Below the pieces are notes generated by a model. That model was given only the letters and a program-made list of their open reading frames with translations. It was not told where the DNA came from and searched no databases. A DNA stretch of 40,392 nt, taken from IMG/VR virus record IMGVR_UViG_2617271049_000009, positions 1-40,392 of that record, one strand, 5' to 3'. This document shows positions 3,506-27,322 of this stretch, in pieces. Every line of letters starts with the position of its first letter. The stretch's first letter is position 1. Source of the DNA: a virus. Its lineage: Duplodnaviria > Heunggongvirae > Uroviricota > Caudoviricetes. A program made the translations under genes and the position numbers.

Positions 3506-4060
3506 CTAATCCCTGCCTACAGGAAATTTTCGGTATAGTGTTGACACTCCTACATCATAAATTAATGCTACGCGCTGACGCGTTTCTCCTGCAGCGATTA
3601 GTCTCCCTGCCTGCGCCCACTGCTCATCTGTTAGTTTTGGCTTACGTCCACCAATTCGTCCCTGTGCGCGAGCAGCTTCCAGTCCAGCTTTTGTTCGTTC
3701 AACAATCAGTTCACGCTCCATTTCAGCCAGGGCACCCATCACATGAAAGAAAAAGCGCCCCATTGGGGTACTAGTATCAATTGAATCCGTCAGACTACGA
3801 AAGTTGATGCCTCGTTCGCGCAACTCCTCAACCAGAATGACCAGATGCCGCATACTACGCCCCAGCCGATCCAGCTTCCAGACAACCAGAGTGTCACCTG
3901 CCGATAATGTCCTGAGCAGTTTTTTCAGTCCAGGCCTTTCGGACTTTGTACCGCTTATCTTGTCTTCAAAAATCAGCTCGCATCCTGCACAGTTCAGCGC
4001 ATTACGTTGTAGATCTGTGTTCTGGTCATTTGTTGACACACGTACATAGCCAATAAGCAT
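3506..4060 (-). CDS. pin: site-specific DNA invertase, serine recombinase of the Pin/Gin/Hin/Cin family (184 aa from MLIGYVRVSTNDQ)
   Basis: N-terminus MLIGYVRVSTNDQ with catalytic-serine context, resolvase-type domain and C-terminal HTH (YDVGVSTLYRKFP); adjacent to inverted repeats inside a tail-fibre gene. Confidence 0.9.
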   Translation of the reverse strand: MLIGYVRVSTNDQNTDLQRNALNCAGCELIFEDKISGTKSERPGLKKLLRTLSAGDTLVVWKLDRLGRSMRHLVILVEELRERGINFRSLTDSIDTSTPMGRFFFHVMGALAEMERELIVERTKAGLEAARAQGRIGGRKPKLTDEQWAQAGRLIAAGETRQRVALIYDVGVSTLYRKFPVGRD

Positions 4061-4086
4061 GGTAGATCTCCCTAGCAAAAGCAGGA

Positions 4087-4587
4087 ATGATGCCATTTGC
4101 TCGTTATTTCTGCATTTTCATAAACGTTGGTTTGGGAGAAGGTTCGGCATTACCCGTTGGTGTGCCTGTTCCGTGGCCTTCAGCCACTCCGCCAACAGGA
4201 TGGCTGAAATGCAATGGTGCGGCTTTTTCTGCTGAAGAATACCCGGAACTGGCAAAGGCTTACCCGACAAATAAATTGCCTGATTTACGCGGTGAGTTTA
4301 TTCGTGGCTGGGATGACGGTCGTTCAGTAGATACTGGTCGCAGCGTTATGTCTGCACAGAGCGCGCGTGTTGGTTATATTAAATTTGATATGGGAATTTA
4401 TGGTATTCCTGCAGGTACGGGCTCACTTATTTTGTCCAATGATATCTTAATTACGGGTCATGACAGTAATGGCTCAAGCCTATTGCTGAACAACTCTAAT
4501 GAGCGGGCAATTGGTGAAATGTATGTCGTTCCTGCCGATACTCGCCCACGGAATATCGCATTTAACTATATCGTGAGGGCTGCATAA
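4087..4587 (+). CDS. alternative tail-fibre C-terminal variable segment (166 aa), silent in the present orientation; e14 StfE-like
   Basis: ORF begins inside the inverted repeat with the same peptide (MPFARYFCIFINVGL) as the minus-strand copy; stop overlaps start of the downstream assembly gene (TAATG); same length as e14 StfE as I recall it. Confidence 0.65.
   Translation: MMPFARYFCIFINVGLGEGSALPVGVPVPWPSATPPTGWLKCNGAAFSAEEYPELAKAYPTNKLPDLRGEFIRGWDDGRSVDTGRSVMSAQSARVGYIKFDMGIYGIPAGTGSLILSNDILITGHDSNGSSLLLNNSNERAIGEMYVVPADTRPRNIAFNYIVRAA
4089..4145. repeat. left inverted repeat of the invertible tail-fibre segment (contains the putative crossover site near 4115..4140)
   Basis: ~57 bp identical except one mismatch to the reverse complement of 5959..6015; contains a TTTTCATAAACGTTGGTTTGGGAGAA element resembling hix/gix-type sites. 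Confidence 0.75.
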
Positions 4588-5199
4588 TGGATAACGCTGT
4601 ATTAAATAGCGAGTTTATTGCTACAAAGGCGGGAAATATTACCGTCTATAACTATGATGGCGAAACGCGGGAATATATTTCCACTTCAAATGAATATCTT
4701 GCCATTGGTGTCGGTATCCCTGCATATTCCTGTTTAGACGCTCCTGGTACATATAAGGCTGGTTATACAATTTGCCGTTCTGTGGATTTAAAATCATGGG
4801 AATATGTGTCAGACCATCGCGGTGAAATCGTCTATAACACCGAAACGGGAGACGCCAAAGAAATCACAGCTCCGGGTGATTATCCAGAAAATACAACCAC
4901 TATCGCCCCATTAACGCCATACGATAAATGGGATGGTGAGAAATGGGTGACCGATACTGAGGCACNNNNNNNNNNGCGCTGCAGTAGACGCGGCAGAAGC
5001 ACAGCGTCAGTCACTGATTGATACTGCAATGGCTTCCATTAGTCTGATTCAGCTGAAATTACAGGCCGGACGGAATTTGACGCAGTCAGAAACCAGCCGA
5101 CTTAACACGGTGTTGGATTACATTGACGCGGTGACGGCAACAGATACCAGCACCGCGCCGGATGTTATCTGGCCTGAACTGCCGGAGACTGCGCAATAA
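4587..5199 (+). CDS. tail fibre assembly protein (Tfa), interrupted by a 10-N gap at 4966..4975
   Basis: N-terminal part ends at the gap; after the gap a different frame gives the conserved Tfa C-terminus (...DYIDAVTATDTSTAPDVIWPELPETAQ) ending at TAA 5197..5199. Confidence 0.7.
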
Positions 5200-23282: not shown

Positions 23283-23633
23283 TCACTTTAACCGTTCACG
23301 GGCCGTCTTCGCCTTATGACACGGCCAGCACAGACTCTGCAGATTACTGTCAGCATCAGTGCCGCCATGCGCTTTAGGGATGATGTGGTCAACAGTTTTC
23401 GCCTCACGCACCACACCAGCACGCAGACATAATTGACACAGGCCTTTGTCACGCTTCAGAACACGCGCGCGGATACTGTCCCACTTCGAACCGTAGCCGC
23501 GCTGATGACGGGATTGTCCAGGTTTGTATTGCTTCCAGCCTTCGCTTTTGTGGCTTTCGCAGTAGCCTGAAGGGTCAGTAGTGGTATGGCGGCAGCCGCG
23601 AACACGGCAGGCTTTCGGGGTTCGTGGCGGCAT
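23283..23633 (-). CDS. HNH endonuclease, terminase-associated (116 aa)
   Basis: Cys pairs (CRVRGC...CESH; CQLC...CWPCH) and DHIIP...H...N motif typical of HNH; located just upstream of the terminase genes. Confidence 0.85.
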   Translation of the reverse strand: MPPRTPKACRVRGCRHTTTDPSGYCESHKSEGWKQYKPGQSRHQRGYGSKWDSIRARVLKRDKGLCQLCLRAGVVREAKTVDHIIPKAHGGTDADSNLQSLCWPCHKAKTARERLK

Positions 23634-23683
23634 TAATGCTTCCCTTTAAGTTATTACGATGGAACAGACCATAGAAATGGCAA

Positions 23684-23708
23684 TAAAAAACCGCCCGGAG
23701 GCGGTTCA
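23684..23708 (-). terminator. Rho-independent terminator downstream of the 106-aa gene
   Basis: Minus-strand reading CCGCCTCCGGGCGG followed by TTTTTT. Confidence 0.6.
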
Positions 23709-23725
23709 ATTATCATCTCGATAAA

Positions 23726-24046
23726 CTAAATCAGATCACCAATGTATTTTGCACTAATTGAAATTTGCATCTGAGGCATTCCGACCACAGATCCATTTAA
23801 CAGGTAATCACGTCCTCGTTCCTGCAAAGAAAGACTCAATTCAAAGTTCTTTACCCCAGGGAAAACCGAGGTGACATTTAAATCATGCTGCGATACGCGC
23901 AGAATAAGTTGGCTACCGTCAATTTTTCCCTGATACGTAAAACCAAAATCTCCGCCGTTTACTGCATTGTTTTTGACAACTACGGTACCATTACCAAAAT
24001 CACGTTGATTGCTTCTGAAAACAACAAAATAGATACCATCTTTCAT
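23726..24046 (-). CDS. hypothetical protein (106 aa) between the lysis cassette and HNH
   Basis: ATG-initiated ORF with its own downstream terminator; AT-rich relative to neighbours. Confidence 0.5.
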   Translation of the reverse strand: MKDGIYFVVFRSNQRDFGNGTVVVKNNAVNGGDFGFTYQGKIDGSQLILRVSQHDLNVTSVFPGVKNFELSLSLQERGRDYLLNGSVVGMPQMQISISAKYIGDLI

Positions 24047-24138
24047 GTGTAAAGCCCTTTAAAAGAGTCACCAAAATCAGGTGCTTTGTATCTATTGGGC
24101 CATCACATATCAAATCAAGGAACAAAACAAAGTTAACA

Positions 24139-24408
24139 TCATTTTTTTTGCATGATGTGACCACGCTCAACTTCAATCCTTCTGATGTCAGCTTTATCGG
24201 TATTACACTGCGCCAATGCAGACAACAAGGCGACATTCAGATCTAAGCTCGAGCCCCACGTAAAATGATCAGGTAAATCAGGCTGAGGGGTTTCAGCCGT
24301 CAGGCTGGCTGGTAACGGAACTACCGGAACCTGGACGTAAACTGTTCGCGTACTTCCGCAACCGGTCAGCAGCGGCAGCAGGCACAGGACGTGAAGCACA
24401 ATCATCAT
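24139..24408 (-). CDS. o-spanin Rz1-like lipoprotein, overlapping the 3' part of Rz in another frame
   Basis: Signal peptide with lipobox LLTGC followed by a Pro-rich segment; starts inside the Rz gene and extends beyond its stop. Confidence 0.55.
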   Translation of the reverse strand: MMIVLHVLCLLPLLTGCGSTRTVYVQVPVVPLPASLTAETPQPDLPDHFTWGSSLDLNVALLSALAQCNTDKADIRRIEVERGHIMQKK

Positions 24409-24685: not shown

Positions 24686-25296
24686 ACCAGCAGCGCCGCC
24701 CGCGCCTTGTTGTATCGGACCTTACGATCCTCAATACCGTTCAAACCGCCGTTAATGATGCGCGTAACACGGTTAATATCGGCACCGTAGATCATGCAAC
24801 CTTTAGAGGTGTAGAACCATGCAGCTGAGCGCGCAGCCTGTAGTTCCTGTTCCAGTTGTTCAGGTGAAGTCACCAGATCTAACTTCAGCGCCGCGCCACA
24901 GATGCGATAATTATGGAGGCCAGTGATTTGAATTAATCCTCTACCACGATATTTCCAGCCATCACCTGGTGCTTTGTTACCCAGTCGGTTGCTATACACC
25001 AGATTGGCAATAGCATCCTGACGAGCTGCATGTCCGGATGTTCTGCCAAGGGCATCAGCCTGCTGCTGTGTGATCCTCTTTCCGAACGTCGCCACAAGCG
25101 CAGATGGTGTGTAGTTAAGATTTTCAACTACGGCGCTAAACCCCATCGACTCATGGCCTACCTGAGCGATAAACATTGCCTGATCCGCTGGTGCTGTAAT
25201 GCCGAATTCCTTCATCGCCGCATCAATGTGCGGAAACCAGCGCGCAGCCAGCCCGGCGCTAATACCAGCCGCCTTTTGAAATAATTGTTGGTTCAT
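24682..25296 (-). CDS. endolysin (lysozyme/chitinase-like glycoside hydrolase, 204 aa)
   Basis: Position after holin genes; sequence pattern recalled as family-19 type lysozyme (GRGLIQITG). Confidence 0.8.
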   Translation of the reverse strand: MNQQLFQKAAGISAGLAARWFPHIDAAMKEFGITAPADQAMFIAQVGHESMGFSAVVENLNYTPSALVATFGKRITQQQADALGRTSGHAARQDAIANLVYSNRLGNKAPGDGWKYRGRGLIQITGLHNYRICGAALKLDLVTSPEQLEQELQAARSAAWFYTSKGCMIYGADINRVTRIINGGLNGIEDRKVRYNKARAALLV

Positions 25297-25577
25297 TAGT
25301 GCCTCAGATGATCAACCAGACGTGCAACGTTGCCTCTGACAGCCACCAGCACGGAAAGAAAAATAGTGTTCGCCACGATAATGGGCCATGAGGAATGGGG
25401 ATAAATCCCACAGAGATAGGCCAACGGAACAGCACTGTATGTAACAGTAATCAGCCAGGCTAAACGTGAAACCCAAGGACGATGCCGCGAATCACCACGA
25501 CGATAAAACATCAGAGTAATAACAACACAAGCACATAACAGCGCATTTATAGTTGCTGTCGGGTCATTTAGCTCCAC
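25296..25577 (-). CDS. holin or antiholin-like membrane protein (93 aa, GTG start)
   Basis: Three hydrophobic segments; between the first holin-like gene and the endolysin. Confidence 0.55.
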   Translation of the reverse strand: MELNDPTATINALLCACVVITLMFYRRGDSRHRPWVSRLAWLITVTYSAVPLAYLCGIYPHSSWPIIVANTIFLSVLVAVRGNVARLVDHLRH

Positions 25578-25950
25578 CTGAACCTCCCCGGCGCGTTATG
25601 AGCGCCACCAGCGAGCCGATATCCTGATTATTCAGGAACGTCAGGATTTTAACGGCTAAAGCAGAGACGATTACGGCACCAATAGCATCCAGAGGTTTAT
25701 CACTGTATCCGGTCAAGTTCGCCAGCTTGGAGCCAACCAACCCAGAGCAAAGAATCCCGGCAATATATGACACGATAAAATATGCCAGTCGGCGCGATGC
25801 ACTCAGATCTGCAGCTGTTGCTATGTAGAATACAGCCCCTGCAAATGCGCCAAATACAACGCCGTAATCAGTTCCGGTCAGCAGTCCATAAACACTGGCA
25901 CCCGTCAGGGCACCACCAGCCAGCCCAGTACCGGAAATCGGATCGGACAT
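25564..25950 (-). CDS. putative holin (128 aa)
   Basis: Gly/Ala-rich multi-pass membrane protein, first gene of the lysis cassette. Confidence 0.6.
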   Translation of the reverse strand: MSDPISGTGLAGGALTGASVYGLLTGTDYGVVFGAFAGAVFYIATAADLSASRRLAYFIVSYIAGILCSGLVGSKLANLTGYSDKPLDAIGAVIVSALAVKILTFLNNQDIGSLVALITRRGGSGGAK

Positions 25951-26000
25951 TTAGCCCCCTCTTAATTGCTGTTGGTCCTCTCAGAACGAGGGGAAACAAA

Positions 26001-26030
26001 AAAGGCCGCATTAAGGCGGCCTTGGTAAGG
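26001..26030 (-). terminator. Rho-independent terminator downstream of the 198-aa moron gene
   Basis: Minus-strand reading AAGGCCGCCTTAATGCGGCCTT followed by TTTTGTTT. Confidence 0.6.
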
Positions 26031-26040
26031 TATAGTTTTT

Positions 26041-26637
26041 TTAAGATAAACTTTGATTGATATACTCATGACACCCAAAAATAAAGGCGTTTTGTGCATC
26101 AATAAATGACTTTTTTTCTTCCGGAGTAAAATACCCTTTTGTAAAACATACTTTTAGCGCTTTTTGAAGATCTGCCGTCAGGGTTATCAACTTACAACCT
26201 TCCTCATCAGGCCTTATTAATAGAAGTAATTTATTTTTACTTATTTCAGCGGCCTTTATTGGAACTTGAATCTCCTCAGGGAAAACACCCTTAGCCAATA
26301 TATCCATATTCTTATTTCCGACCAGATGCCATTGCTCAAATGTGCTGGCCAACATAATTACGTCTGTCACATGCTCAGCGCCAGCAAAACGTATTTGTTG
26401 CGCCAATTCTTTATTAGTATTCAAGTGAGCCTGTAATGTGGCTAAGGCAAAATTTTCTTTGATTGCCCTGTATGCAACCCAACCAGTTATTCCTGCGGCA
26501 ATAACGCCTGCAAGAGCAGTAATGAGTGTTTCAAAAGGAAAGGAAGAACTGATTTCAATTGGCGGTAATTTTTCTATTACCAAGGTCAACTCGCCAGTAG
26601 TTTTTTCGAAAGCGTACGGTACGTTTTGCCAAGTCAT
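26041..26637 (-). CDS. hypothetical membrane-anchored protein (198 aa) in the Q-to-lysis moron position
   Basis: ATG with strong AGGAGG SD; one predicted TM helix (ITALAGVIAAGITGWVAY); markedly AT-rich; flanked by terminators on both sides. Confidence 0.65.
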   Translation of the reverse strand: MTWQNVPYAFEKTTGELTLVIEKLPPIEISSSFPFETLITALAGVIAAGITGWVAYRAIKENFALATLQAHLNTNKELAQQIRFAGAEHVTDVIMLASTFEQWHLVGNKNMDILAKGVFPEEIQVPIKAAEISKNKLLLLIRPDEEGCKLITLTADLQKALKVCFTKGYFTPEEKKSFIDAQNAFIFGCHEYINQSLS

Positions 26638-26664
26638 GAAGCCTCCTGAGTTTCAGAGGAATCA

Positions 26665-26697
26665 TAACAAAAAAACCCGCTCAATGGCGGGCTCTTA
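26665..26697 (-). terminator. Rho-independent terminator just downstream of Q (tR'-like)
   Basis: Minus-strand reading GCCCGCCATTGAGCGGG followed by TTTTTTT, then the SD and ATG of the 198-aa gene. Confidence 0.6.
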
Positions 26698-26743
26698 ATG
26701 TTGTGTTGCTCAGTTCGCTTTAACGTCCCGAGCCTACCACAAT

Positions 26744-27322
26744 TTAAGCACTTTCTTGCTCACTCTGCAACTTAAATCTGTCGCTATTTGTGCCGAATGC
26801 GTCACAAACTGGAGCGTACAGGATCGATTCTGCAAGACTTAGCCAAGTGTCAATGCGTCGACGACAGGTGATCAGCGGCCAGTCAGGATGTTTAGCCTGC
26901 AGTTCATTGGCCATCTGCAACTTGCTCTTACGAAGACGATACCGGTCAACAATCACGCTATAGAGCGATCGGTAGTCATCATTCATCAGTACTGAAGCAA
27001 TGACACCGTCCACTAACAACCCTTCTTCATCTGAACAGAACGCCAGGCCGCTTTTATTTTTGCTGTTGAGAATTTCACGCAGGTACGCTTCAAGTTCAGG
27101 CTTGGTGATACCCGCTATCTTCATCCGGCGTAGCGCTTCATTGATAGCTGTCTTGGTGATTTTCCCGGATGCCAGAAGCTGGTTAAACATGTTTCCACCA
27201 CTACCACCGCCGATATAAGACCAGCGGCCCCACATGCGCAACTTGCCTTGTATCCAGATACTTTCCAGAGTACGAAGGCGAACCATTTCACCTGATTTGC
27301 CAACTTCAGAAGGATTAATCAT
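26744..27322 (-). CDS. late-gene antitermination protein Q-like (192 aa)
   Basis: Position immediately upstream of the lysis region and terminator; LRMWGRW motif recalled from Q-family antiterminators. Confidence 0.65.
   Translation of the reverse strand: MINPSEVGKSGEMVRLRTLESIWIQGKLRMWGRWSYIGGGSGGNMFNQLLASGKITKTAINEALRRMKIAGITKPELEAYLREILNSKNKSGLAFCSDEEGLLVDGVIASVLMNDDYRSLYSVIVDRYRLRKSKLQMANELQAKHPDWPLITCRRRIDTWLSLAESILYAPVCDAFGTNSDRFKLQSEQESA

Follow-up and report, generated by a model that had tools for sequence, protein, structure and literature searches.

An optional AT-rich gene for a putative single-span membrane protein between antiterminator Q and the lysis genes of an Escherichia coli prophage, with a leader hairpin over its translation start

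Introduction

What does a gene do that stands between the late antiterminator gene Q and the lysis genes of a lambdoid-type prophage, a slot that is home to some of the most consequential cargo of such prophages? The question is raised by the gene for a 198-amino-acid (aa) protein (WP_000220228.1) in the IMG/VR virus record IMGVR_UViG_2617271049_000009, of which a stretch of 40,392 nucleotides (nt), hereafter the window, was analysed. An earlier note on this DNA had read the gene as a moron, AT-rich and bracketed by two terminators, encoding a membrane protein. We report here that the gene is an optional cassette of this slot, defining one further resident, and that its start codon and ribosome-binding site are occluded by a conserved leader hairpin; we then weigh what its product may do.

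Results

An exchangeable cassette between Q and the lysis genes

In this lambdoid-type E. coli prophage, the gene for the 198-aa protein occupies the Q-to-lysis slot as a cassette that is optional and can be exchanged. Of 5,426 complete E. coli genomes, 32 carry the 801-bp cassette, at about 100% identity. With a 2-kb query running from the holin to Q, 270 E. coli genomes gave a match, 29 of them over the full length. Most of the 270 match on the holin side only, up to window positions 25995-26023, and the holin side alone was matched in 44 of 60 records drawn as an evenly spaced sample of the 270. Prophages in which the cargo has been swapped for an 85-aa or a 261-aa gene have holins 94-99% identical to that of the window. 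The slot holds an 85-aa soluble protein beside a different Q in E. coli SEC470 (holins 99.4% identical) and an unrelated 261-aa protein in E. coli AH04. E. coli FAM21845 has the same Q (94.5% identical), a holin region 85.6% identical and, in the slot, a 249-aa protein related to that of AH04. Homology between FAM21845 and the window stops in the T-tract of the upstream terminator (26670) and in the downstream terminator (26005); the exchanged unit therefore consists of the leader, the gene and part of the second terminator. The slot of five relatives contained no tRNA genes. The earlier note had proposed comparing related prophages to see whether the slot varies, and vary it does, with other cargo beside 99%-identical holins.

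The alternative cargo of AH04 (WP_000275196; L003 4249-5034, minus strand) and FAM21845 (WP_081178110; L004 3310-4059, minus strand) is likewise AT-rich or more so (GC 0.39 and 0.33). Both proteins carry an R-x4-H motif (RNSTQH and RDSSHH, respectively) resembling that of HEPN nucleases, with no Pfam match, and are candidate abortive-infection proteins. A decayed prophage copy of the locus is found in E. coli P276M (L080; NZ_CP044293.1 3259647-3274447). It has lost the lysis, terminase and portal genes by deletion, and pseudogenes have taken the place of several tail genes; its copies of Q and of the 198-aa gene are undamaged and identical to those of the window.

A leader hairpin that hides the translation start

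The leader between the upstream terminator and the ATG is 33 nt long and forms a well-supported two-tier hairpin, by which the Shine-Dalgarno sequence and the AUG are both masked. The outer stem pairs GUUAUGA with UCAUGAC across the start codon (26637..26635), and in the inner stem CCUCU pairs with the Shine-Dalgarno AGGAG (26647..26642). The stretch TGTTATGAT (26669..26661), which fits the extended -10 consensus TGnTATGAT, is at the same time the 5' arm of this hairpin. In the window, the minimum free energy of the leader fold is -15.8 kcal/mol (z-score -4.57, reached by 0 of 200 shuffles), and the same fold is present in six of eight diverged leaders (z -2.9 to -4.9). Across 17 distinct leaders, some of which were gathered by a DNA-pattern scan with the motif held fixed, 83% of cells pair, compared with 40-58% when the partner is slid. 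The covariation score over these leaders is 0.256 versus 0.07-0.15, a value reached by none of 500 shuffles. Compensatory change is seen at three pairs, one of which is formed by base +4 of the open reading frame (ORF) and the free n of TGn. RNAalifold on a MAFFT alignment of the leaders gave a trivial outer stem only; the hairpin was set by hand and tested against slid and shuffled controls. It has no matching family in Rfam, and this conserved start-site-occluding leader hairpin is a new observation of the present analysis. An anti-Shine-Dalgarno structure considered for the holin leader was dropped, as it folds no better than shuffles (z 0.03).

The eight loci found by way of the protein (19-76% aa identity) and the cultured phage LLS have a common layout: a terminator hairpin with a variable stem, a T-tract, TG(C/T)TATGAT, about 20 nt, a Shine-Dalgarno sequence and the ATG. 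The extended -10 motif recurs in nine leaders found via the protein. In a 19%-identical relative (L058 4690-5000, plus strand), the family gene is separated from the gene before it by two terminator-like hairpins, the second of which is followed by TTTTTTTGTTATGATTC, a sequence identical to that of the window. This suggests that hairpin and leader travel with the cassette.

Coding status and similarity searches

Compared with Enterobacter-type homologues 70-76% identical, the proportion of nonsynonymous differences (pN) is 0.13-0.17 and that of synonymous differences (pS) 0.78-0.88 (saturated), and the ratio of the two substitution rates (dN/dS) is 0.05-0.07 where computable. By this substitution pattern, the frame is a real gene under strong purifying selection.

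The earlier note had not recognised the protein, and profile libraries bear this out. The sole library match is a full-length one to phrog_18859, to which no function is assigned (expectation value E 7.3e-91, residues 1-198 on profile positions 1-198 of 198). Nothing significant was found for the protein in Pfam, NCBIfam, PADLOC or PDB sequences, and no defence model of PADLOC-DB 2.0 matched it at E up to 10. The PDB sequence profile search returned coiled-coil and helical noise only, including Csx28 at E 7. Neither the protein nor any of 33 members of its family reached the cut-off of a Pfam-A family, including those known superinfection-exclusion (Sie) families that have a Pfam model, individual Sie proteins not being compared profile to profile. 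The earlier note had named a conserved lysis accessory protein, present at this position in all relatives, as the finding that would overturn its reading. No lysis family of Pfam, PHROGs or NCBIfam matches the protein or any of the 33 members, and most prophages with 99%-identical holins lack the gene. Every database name given to homologues, in a second large profile search as well, is "hypothetical protein", and literature searches gave nothing specific on the accession or on defence hotspots between Q and lysis genes. One protein cluster (P0002, 16 member sequences, e.g. from E. coli UPEC-245U) comprises a 224-aa variant whose C-terminus diverges from about residue 176. It is a frameshifted allele, since its DNA is 99.8% identical to the window and one base shorter.

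Protein architecture

The only hydrophobic stretch of the protein covers residues 37-55/57 (Kyte-Doolittle mean over 19 aa, 1.8), and this helix carries the small-xxx-small pattern G44xxxA48xxxG52. AlphaFold2 (AF2), run on a 33-sequence alignment, gave a model with a predicted local distance difference test (pLDDT) of 83.9 and a predicted template modelling score (pTM) of 0.66. The larger alignment was needed: a run with 12 close homologues reached a pLDDT of 38 and was set aside. The model has helices at residues 35-107, beginning as the membrane helix, 121-140, 145-167 and 172-197, packed as a four-helix bundle of about 140 aa. An N-terminal tail of about 35 aa (MxWxGxPF...K[IL]P) is conserved yet predicted to be disordered, with low AF2 confidence at residues 1-27 despite conservation.

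Over the 33 members, the 15 residues before the helix include 33 K/R and 65 D/E, and the 15 residues after it 91 K/R and 34 D/E. Under the positive-inside rule, these flanking charges point to a topology in which the N-tail is predicted to be periplasmic and the bundle cytoplasmic. No signal peptide or secretion feature was found in the protein. In structure searches, BFVD gave no match at E <= 0.001 and neither did Foldseek against the PDB, where generic bundles alone came up. The Foldseek search and the topology prediction proposed in the earlier note thus gave generic structural neighbours and an N-out charge bias, respectively.

The family and its loci

An exhaustive profile search among 1.84 billion representatives yielded 36 clusters at 50% identity. 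Members are 190-230 aa long, with full-length homologues that retain the conserved motifs down to 17% identity, and all hosts belong to the Enterobacterales (E. coli, Shigella, Salmonella, Citrobacter, Enterobacter, Pantoea, Proteus, Morganella and Providencia). Conservation is best in the first 100 residues or so (MxWxGxPF, K[IL]P, SFSWETVIS, the helix and N..LA..Q...R); the C-terminal helices diverge.

In every locus with flanking sequence, the family gene lies downstream of Q and upstream of lysis genes. The exception is a 2.7-kb contig (L008 927-1820, plus strand) with the family gene at its very end and nothing readable upstream; a DUF4747 protein and a 176-aa ORF follow, no antiterminator or lysis genes are visible, and the contig is too short to judge. 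Four Pfam families of Q are found upstream, DUF1133/Phage_antitermQ, Phage_antiter_Q and Antiterm (PF06576/PF06530, PF06323, PF03589), and at least four holin families downstream (Phage_holin_8, 2_1, 2_3 and 3_1, plus unclassified ones). This fidelity to the slot is by itself no proof of a late function, because recombination between shared flanks would yield it for any cargo. A few loci have further cargo interleaved: a DUF726 protein, two unknown ORFs, an Endonuclease_NS gene, a methylase and an opposite-strand 311-aa gene. The Endonuclease_NS gene (E 2e-47) stands between the family gene and the holin in L058.

Neither DNA nor protein of the window gene had a match in 50,697 GenBank phage records or 72,556 plasmids, and the only phage-record match came from a distant family member in Escherichia phage LLS (PQ299149.1; L063 3498-4103, plus strand). 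This phage, cultured on E. coli K-12, has its member right after a putative Q, with the same hairpin and a TTTTTGTTATGAT leader. The ORF is about 202 aa long and starts MWQGIPFKF; the record divides it into a 30-aa gene 49, with its start inside the leader, and an N-terminally truncated gene 50.

Base composition, neighbouring genes and terminators

The coordinates of the features are given in Table 1. The elements that the earlier note had described, namely a protein with a single transmembrane helix encoded first after a tR'-like terminator downstream of Q, are all in place on the minus strand, as is the terminator ahead of the holin, a hairpin with a T-tract.

Table 1. Features of the Q-to-lysis region of the window and the basis on which each was assigned.
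Feature	Position in window	Strand	Basis
198-aa membrane-protein gene (WP_000220228.1, phrog_18859 member)	26041..26637	minus	ATG start
Leader element, two-tier hairpin	26633..26669	minus	RNA fold and covariation
Transmembrane helix, codons 37-57 (predicted)	26467..26529	minus	hydropathy; AF2 helix 35-107 starts there
Upstream intrinsic terminator, tR'-like hairpin and T-tract	26671..26696	minus	terminator scan, 10 pairs
Downstream intrinsic terminator, ahead of holin genes	26002..26023	minus	terminator scan, 8 pairs (6 GC)
Candidate late promoter (pR'-like)	26731..26770	minus	by-eye reading, analogy with lambda pR'
Q-type late antiterminator gene, 192 aa	26744..27322	minus	DUF1133 E 3.4e-92; Phage_antitermQ E 1.8e-8, above its cut-off
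First holin-family gene of lysis cassette, slot boundary	25564..25950	minus	Phage_holin_8 E 1.2e-34
Second holin-family gene	25296..25577	minus	Phage_holin_3_7

The GC content of the gene is 0.384 (0.327 at third codon positions), versus 0.478 for Q, 0.522 for the holin and 0.509 for the whole window, in line with the low GC relative to its neighbours that had been pointed out before. When the gene and 14 relatives were checked, GC was 7-17 points below that of the respective locus in 15 of 15. The low GC is therefore a maintained family trait and not a sign of recent import, since all members checked are AT-rich although synonymous sites between them are saturated.

Q also matches phrog_753, "anti-termination protein Q-like" (E 2.5e-68), and is preceded in the direction of transcription by a DUF968/HNH gene. 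After the Phage_holin_3_7 gene come a GH19 endolysin and then Rz/Rz1. A second AT-rich accessory gene (23726-24046, minus strand) lies between Rz/Rz1 and the HNH/terminase genes, inside a GC dip at 23600-24200 (local GC 0.37-0.43). Its 106-aa product is GrlR-like (Pfam GrlR 26.7 bits versus a cut-off of 26.8), and the counterpart in E. coli SEC470 is annotated "GrlR family regulatory protein".

The upstream terminator together with the leader folds far below shuffles (z -4.7, 0/200), and so does the downstream terminator (-14.3 kcal/mol, z -4.14, 0/200); the count of terminator-like sites in the region is not above that of shuffles (4 versus 2.4 +/- 1.6). Rfam gave only sub-threshold attenuator-leader matches, to these two terminators. 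In 12 of 12 aligned relatives, a counterpart of the upstream hairpin, with another sequence in its stem, immediately precedes the family gene, and the downstream type of hairpin also follows family members in other loci. In Proteus-type prophages (L043, L044, L045, L051), the opposite-strand 311-aa gene (in L044 at 3917-4852, minus strand) lies between Q and the family gene; these loci have the family gene without the upstream terminator hairpin, and regulation therefore differs in that lineage.

The candidate late promoter consists of TTGCAG (26770..26765), an 18-nt spacer, TAAATT (26746..26741), which overlaps the Q stop codon, and a -10-like TAGGCT (26736..26731); its -10 is the same hexamer as that of lambda pR'. 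The stretch is conserved along with the Q gene in E. coli FAM21845; a consensus promoter scan of the region did not report it.

Discussion

A possible role in phage competition

The explanation we prefer as a whole combines an optional cassette, a bitopic protein, a start-occluding leader and a role in competition between phages, and we give it a probability of roughly 0.4. As to the role itself, we tentatively suggest that the protein acts at the inner membrane, by superinfection exclusion or abortive infection. Several lines lead to this suggestion. The gene is autonomous, sporadic and independent of any one type of Q or holin; a conserved membrane part is paired with a rapidly diverging soluble part; and, as weak hints, a terminator after the gene matters only for transcription that is not Q-modified, and survival of the gene intact in the decayed prophage of P276M speaks for a benefit to the host or for use outside the late phase.

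In such a protein, the conserved N-tail and helix would be the constant part that acts on the membrane or contacts the host, and the fast-diverging cytoplasmic bundle would be the variable part that bears specificity. To reach the gene, transcripts from the late promoter would need Q antitermination or leakage at the terminator, and they would carry the full hairpin, so that translation would be throttled. An own promoter at TGnTATGAT is a possibility. If it is real, transcripts starting there would come without the inhibitory 5' arm and the lysogen would translate them, and the downstream terminator would then keep this transcription out of the holin genes. In phage phi80, expression of TaiEcA dropped under Q overexpression, which the proposed two-level insulation would fit.

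Several observations weigh against this explanation. No homology ties the protein to exclusion or defence, the PADLOC search was empty, and the four-helix bundle is a generic fold. Conservation of TGnTATGAT is no proof of a promoter, because the bases concerned also make up the arm that pairs with the AUG in a covarying hairpin; RNA pairing alone explains it for all but the last T, which never varies in the nine protein-retrieved leaders even though roughly half of all leaders leave it unpaired. Three relatives (L046, L048 and L050) have the terminator directly before the ribosome-binding site, with no room for a promoter, so that their genes can be expressed by read-through only. The downstream terminator may belong to the slot and not to the gene, since the same type of hairpin follows the unrelated cargo of E. 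coli AH04. Finally, retention in a decayed prophage is a single case.

Other explanations

The main rival, which we regard as unlikely but ahead of the others, is a late-expressed modulator of lysis timing, antiholin-like or membrane-acting, made from Q-antiterminated transcripts only and kept at a low level by the hairpin. The constant position downstream of Q and ahead of the lysis genes wherever flanks are available speaks for it, as do the three relatives with no room for a promoter and the inner-membrane location predicted for the protein, with a small-xxx-small helix of the kind seen in oligomerising helices. A translation-tuning RNA structure is also known for lambda S. Antiholins are normally specific to their holin, whereas this family is partnered with at least four unrelated holin families plus unclassified ones, and most prophages whose holins are 99% identical do not have the gene. 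Moreover, it has no homology to holin, antiholin or spanin families in Pfam and PHROGs, a terminator separates it from the holins, and the window already has two holin-family genes and Rz/Rz1. If the modulator were real after all, it would be a holin-independent regulator of lysis.

A lysogenic-conversion factor acting on host physiology, for example on envelope stress, signalling or colonisation, appears improbable. The slot houses toxin and porin genes in other lambdoid prophages, the gene is intact in the decayed prophage, and identical copies are shared by E. coli of many lineages and from many host species. Set against these points are the lack of a signal peptide or secretion feature, a bulk predicted to be cytoplasmic, the absence of similarity to virulence or regulatory families, and the confinement of the family to prophage late regions, with no copies found on plasmids.

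Still less likely is the reversed topology (N-in, C-out), in which the protein would be a periplasmic bundle on a membrane anchor, either imitating the ligand-binding domains of chemoreceptors or sensor kinases or pairing with them. A membrane helix that runs on into helix 1 of the bundle is a feature of those receptors too, but the positive-inside signal over the 33 members points the opposite way, identity to those domains is 4-13% with no match to the Pfam four-helix-bundle (4HB) family, and there is neither a second membrane helix nor an output domain. Bundles of talin and catenin and designed ones reach scores almost as high, so that the match is one to a generic fold.

A chance ORF in AT-rich spacer DNA, for which low GC and an annotation never going beyond "hypothetical protein" could be cited, is refuted by full-length homologues of similar length with conserved motifs down to 17% identity, by the dN/dS values, by the strong Shine-Dalgarno sequence and by the confident structure model.

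Implications

Returning to phage competition, exclusion or abortive infection by this protein would add a new single-gene membrane defence. In a more speculative form, to which we give low odds, the family would be a new class of membrane effector, whose tail would be conserved and periplasmic, whose helix would oligomerise and whose variable cytoplasmic bundle would serve as sensor. It would be made in the lysogen from transcripts starting at the embedded extended -10, and would be off during the phage's own lytic growth, when the fold-back hairpin would block translation of Q-antiterminated transcripts. Whatever its role, the family is clear in its architecture, and its regulatory front end, a terminator followed by a start-hiding hairpin, is conserved to an unusual degree; the leader is a simple testable case of translation depending on where the transcript starts. 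With a family member in the cultured phage LLS, genetics should be straightforward. The gene is best filed as uncharacterised accessory cargo of the Q-to-lysis slot, its points of note being the terminator with the fold-back leader and the fidelity to the slot across the Enterobacterales.

Comparison with known systems

T4 holin T is a class III holin with N-in/C-out topology and an alpha/beta periplasmic domain. The 198-aa protein resembles it in having a tail of about 35 aa, one membrane helix and a large C-terminal domain, and in being encoded with lysis functions; unlike T, it has no Pfam holin match, and its prophage already has two holin-family genes. With the 4HB domains of chemoreceptors and sensor kinases (TorS 3i9w, Tsr 2d4u and NarQ 5iji) it shares a bundle continuous with a membrane helix. 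It differs from them in its low identity (4-13%), the lack of a Pfam match, a single membrane helix, the absence of a signalling module and a bundle predicted to be cytoplasmic.

A parallel to the leader is the fold-back inhibition of IS10/Tn10, where, as Davis, Simons and Kleckner reportedly described in 1985, upstream sequence pairs with the translation start and transcripts from outside are not translated. Here too, a terminator is combined with RNA that pairs with the start, and transcripts from an own promoter would escape the inhibitory arm. Unlike in IS10/Tn10, the internal promoter is a consensus match only, and the outside transcription is the phage's own late transcription.

Known cargo between Q and S, such as Stx toxins, lc/nmpC porins and tRNAs (see also PMC8065619), likewise comes right after pR'/tR', is potentially tied to Q and occupies a variable slot. 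The 198-aa protein is unrelated to this cargo, is neither secreted nor located in the outer membrane by prediction, and its family occurs across four types of Q and at least four holin families.

To be a moron in the strict (Juhala/Hendrix) sense, a gene must have a promoter of its own that gives expression while the prophage is repressed (PMC3594210). Three of the four marks of a moron are present in our gene: absence from close relatives, deviant composition and a terminator of its own. For the fourth, a promoter of its own, an extended -10 match is present, but its bases are also the hairpin arm, and three relatives lack room for it. The moron of the earlier note thus stands as an optional, AT-rich gene with a terminator on each side, and its own promoter comes down to a consensus match within a hairpin arm in a 33-nt leader. 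Like HK97 gp15 and other prophage morons for inner-membrane exclusion proteins (PMC3594210), the gene is a single accessory gene in a late operon with deviant GC and its own terminator, encodes a small putative inner-membrane protein and is absent from close relatives. HK97 gp15 differs in lying in the tail operon, and both its expression from the prophage and a block of DNA entry by it have been demonstrated (PMC3594210). The two have no sequence similarity, the 198-aa protein is about three times larger with a folded helical domain, and the promoter of its gene is a candidate only.

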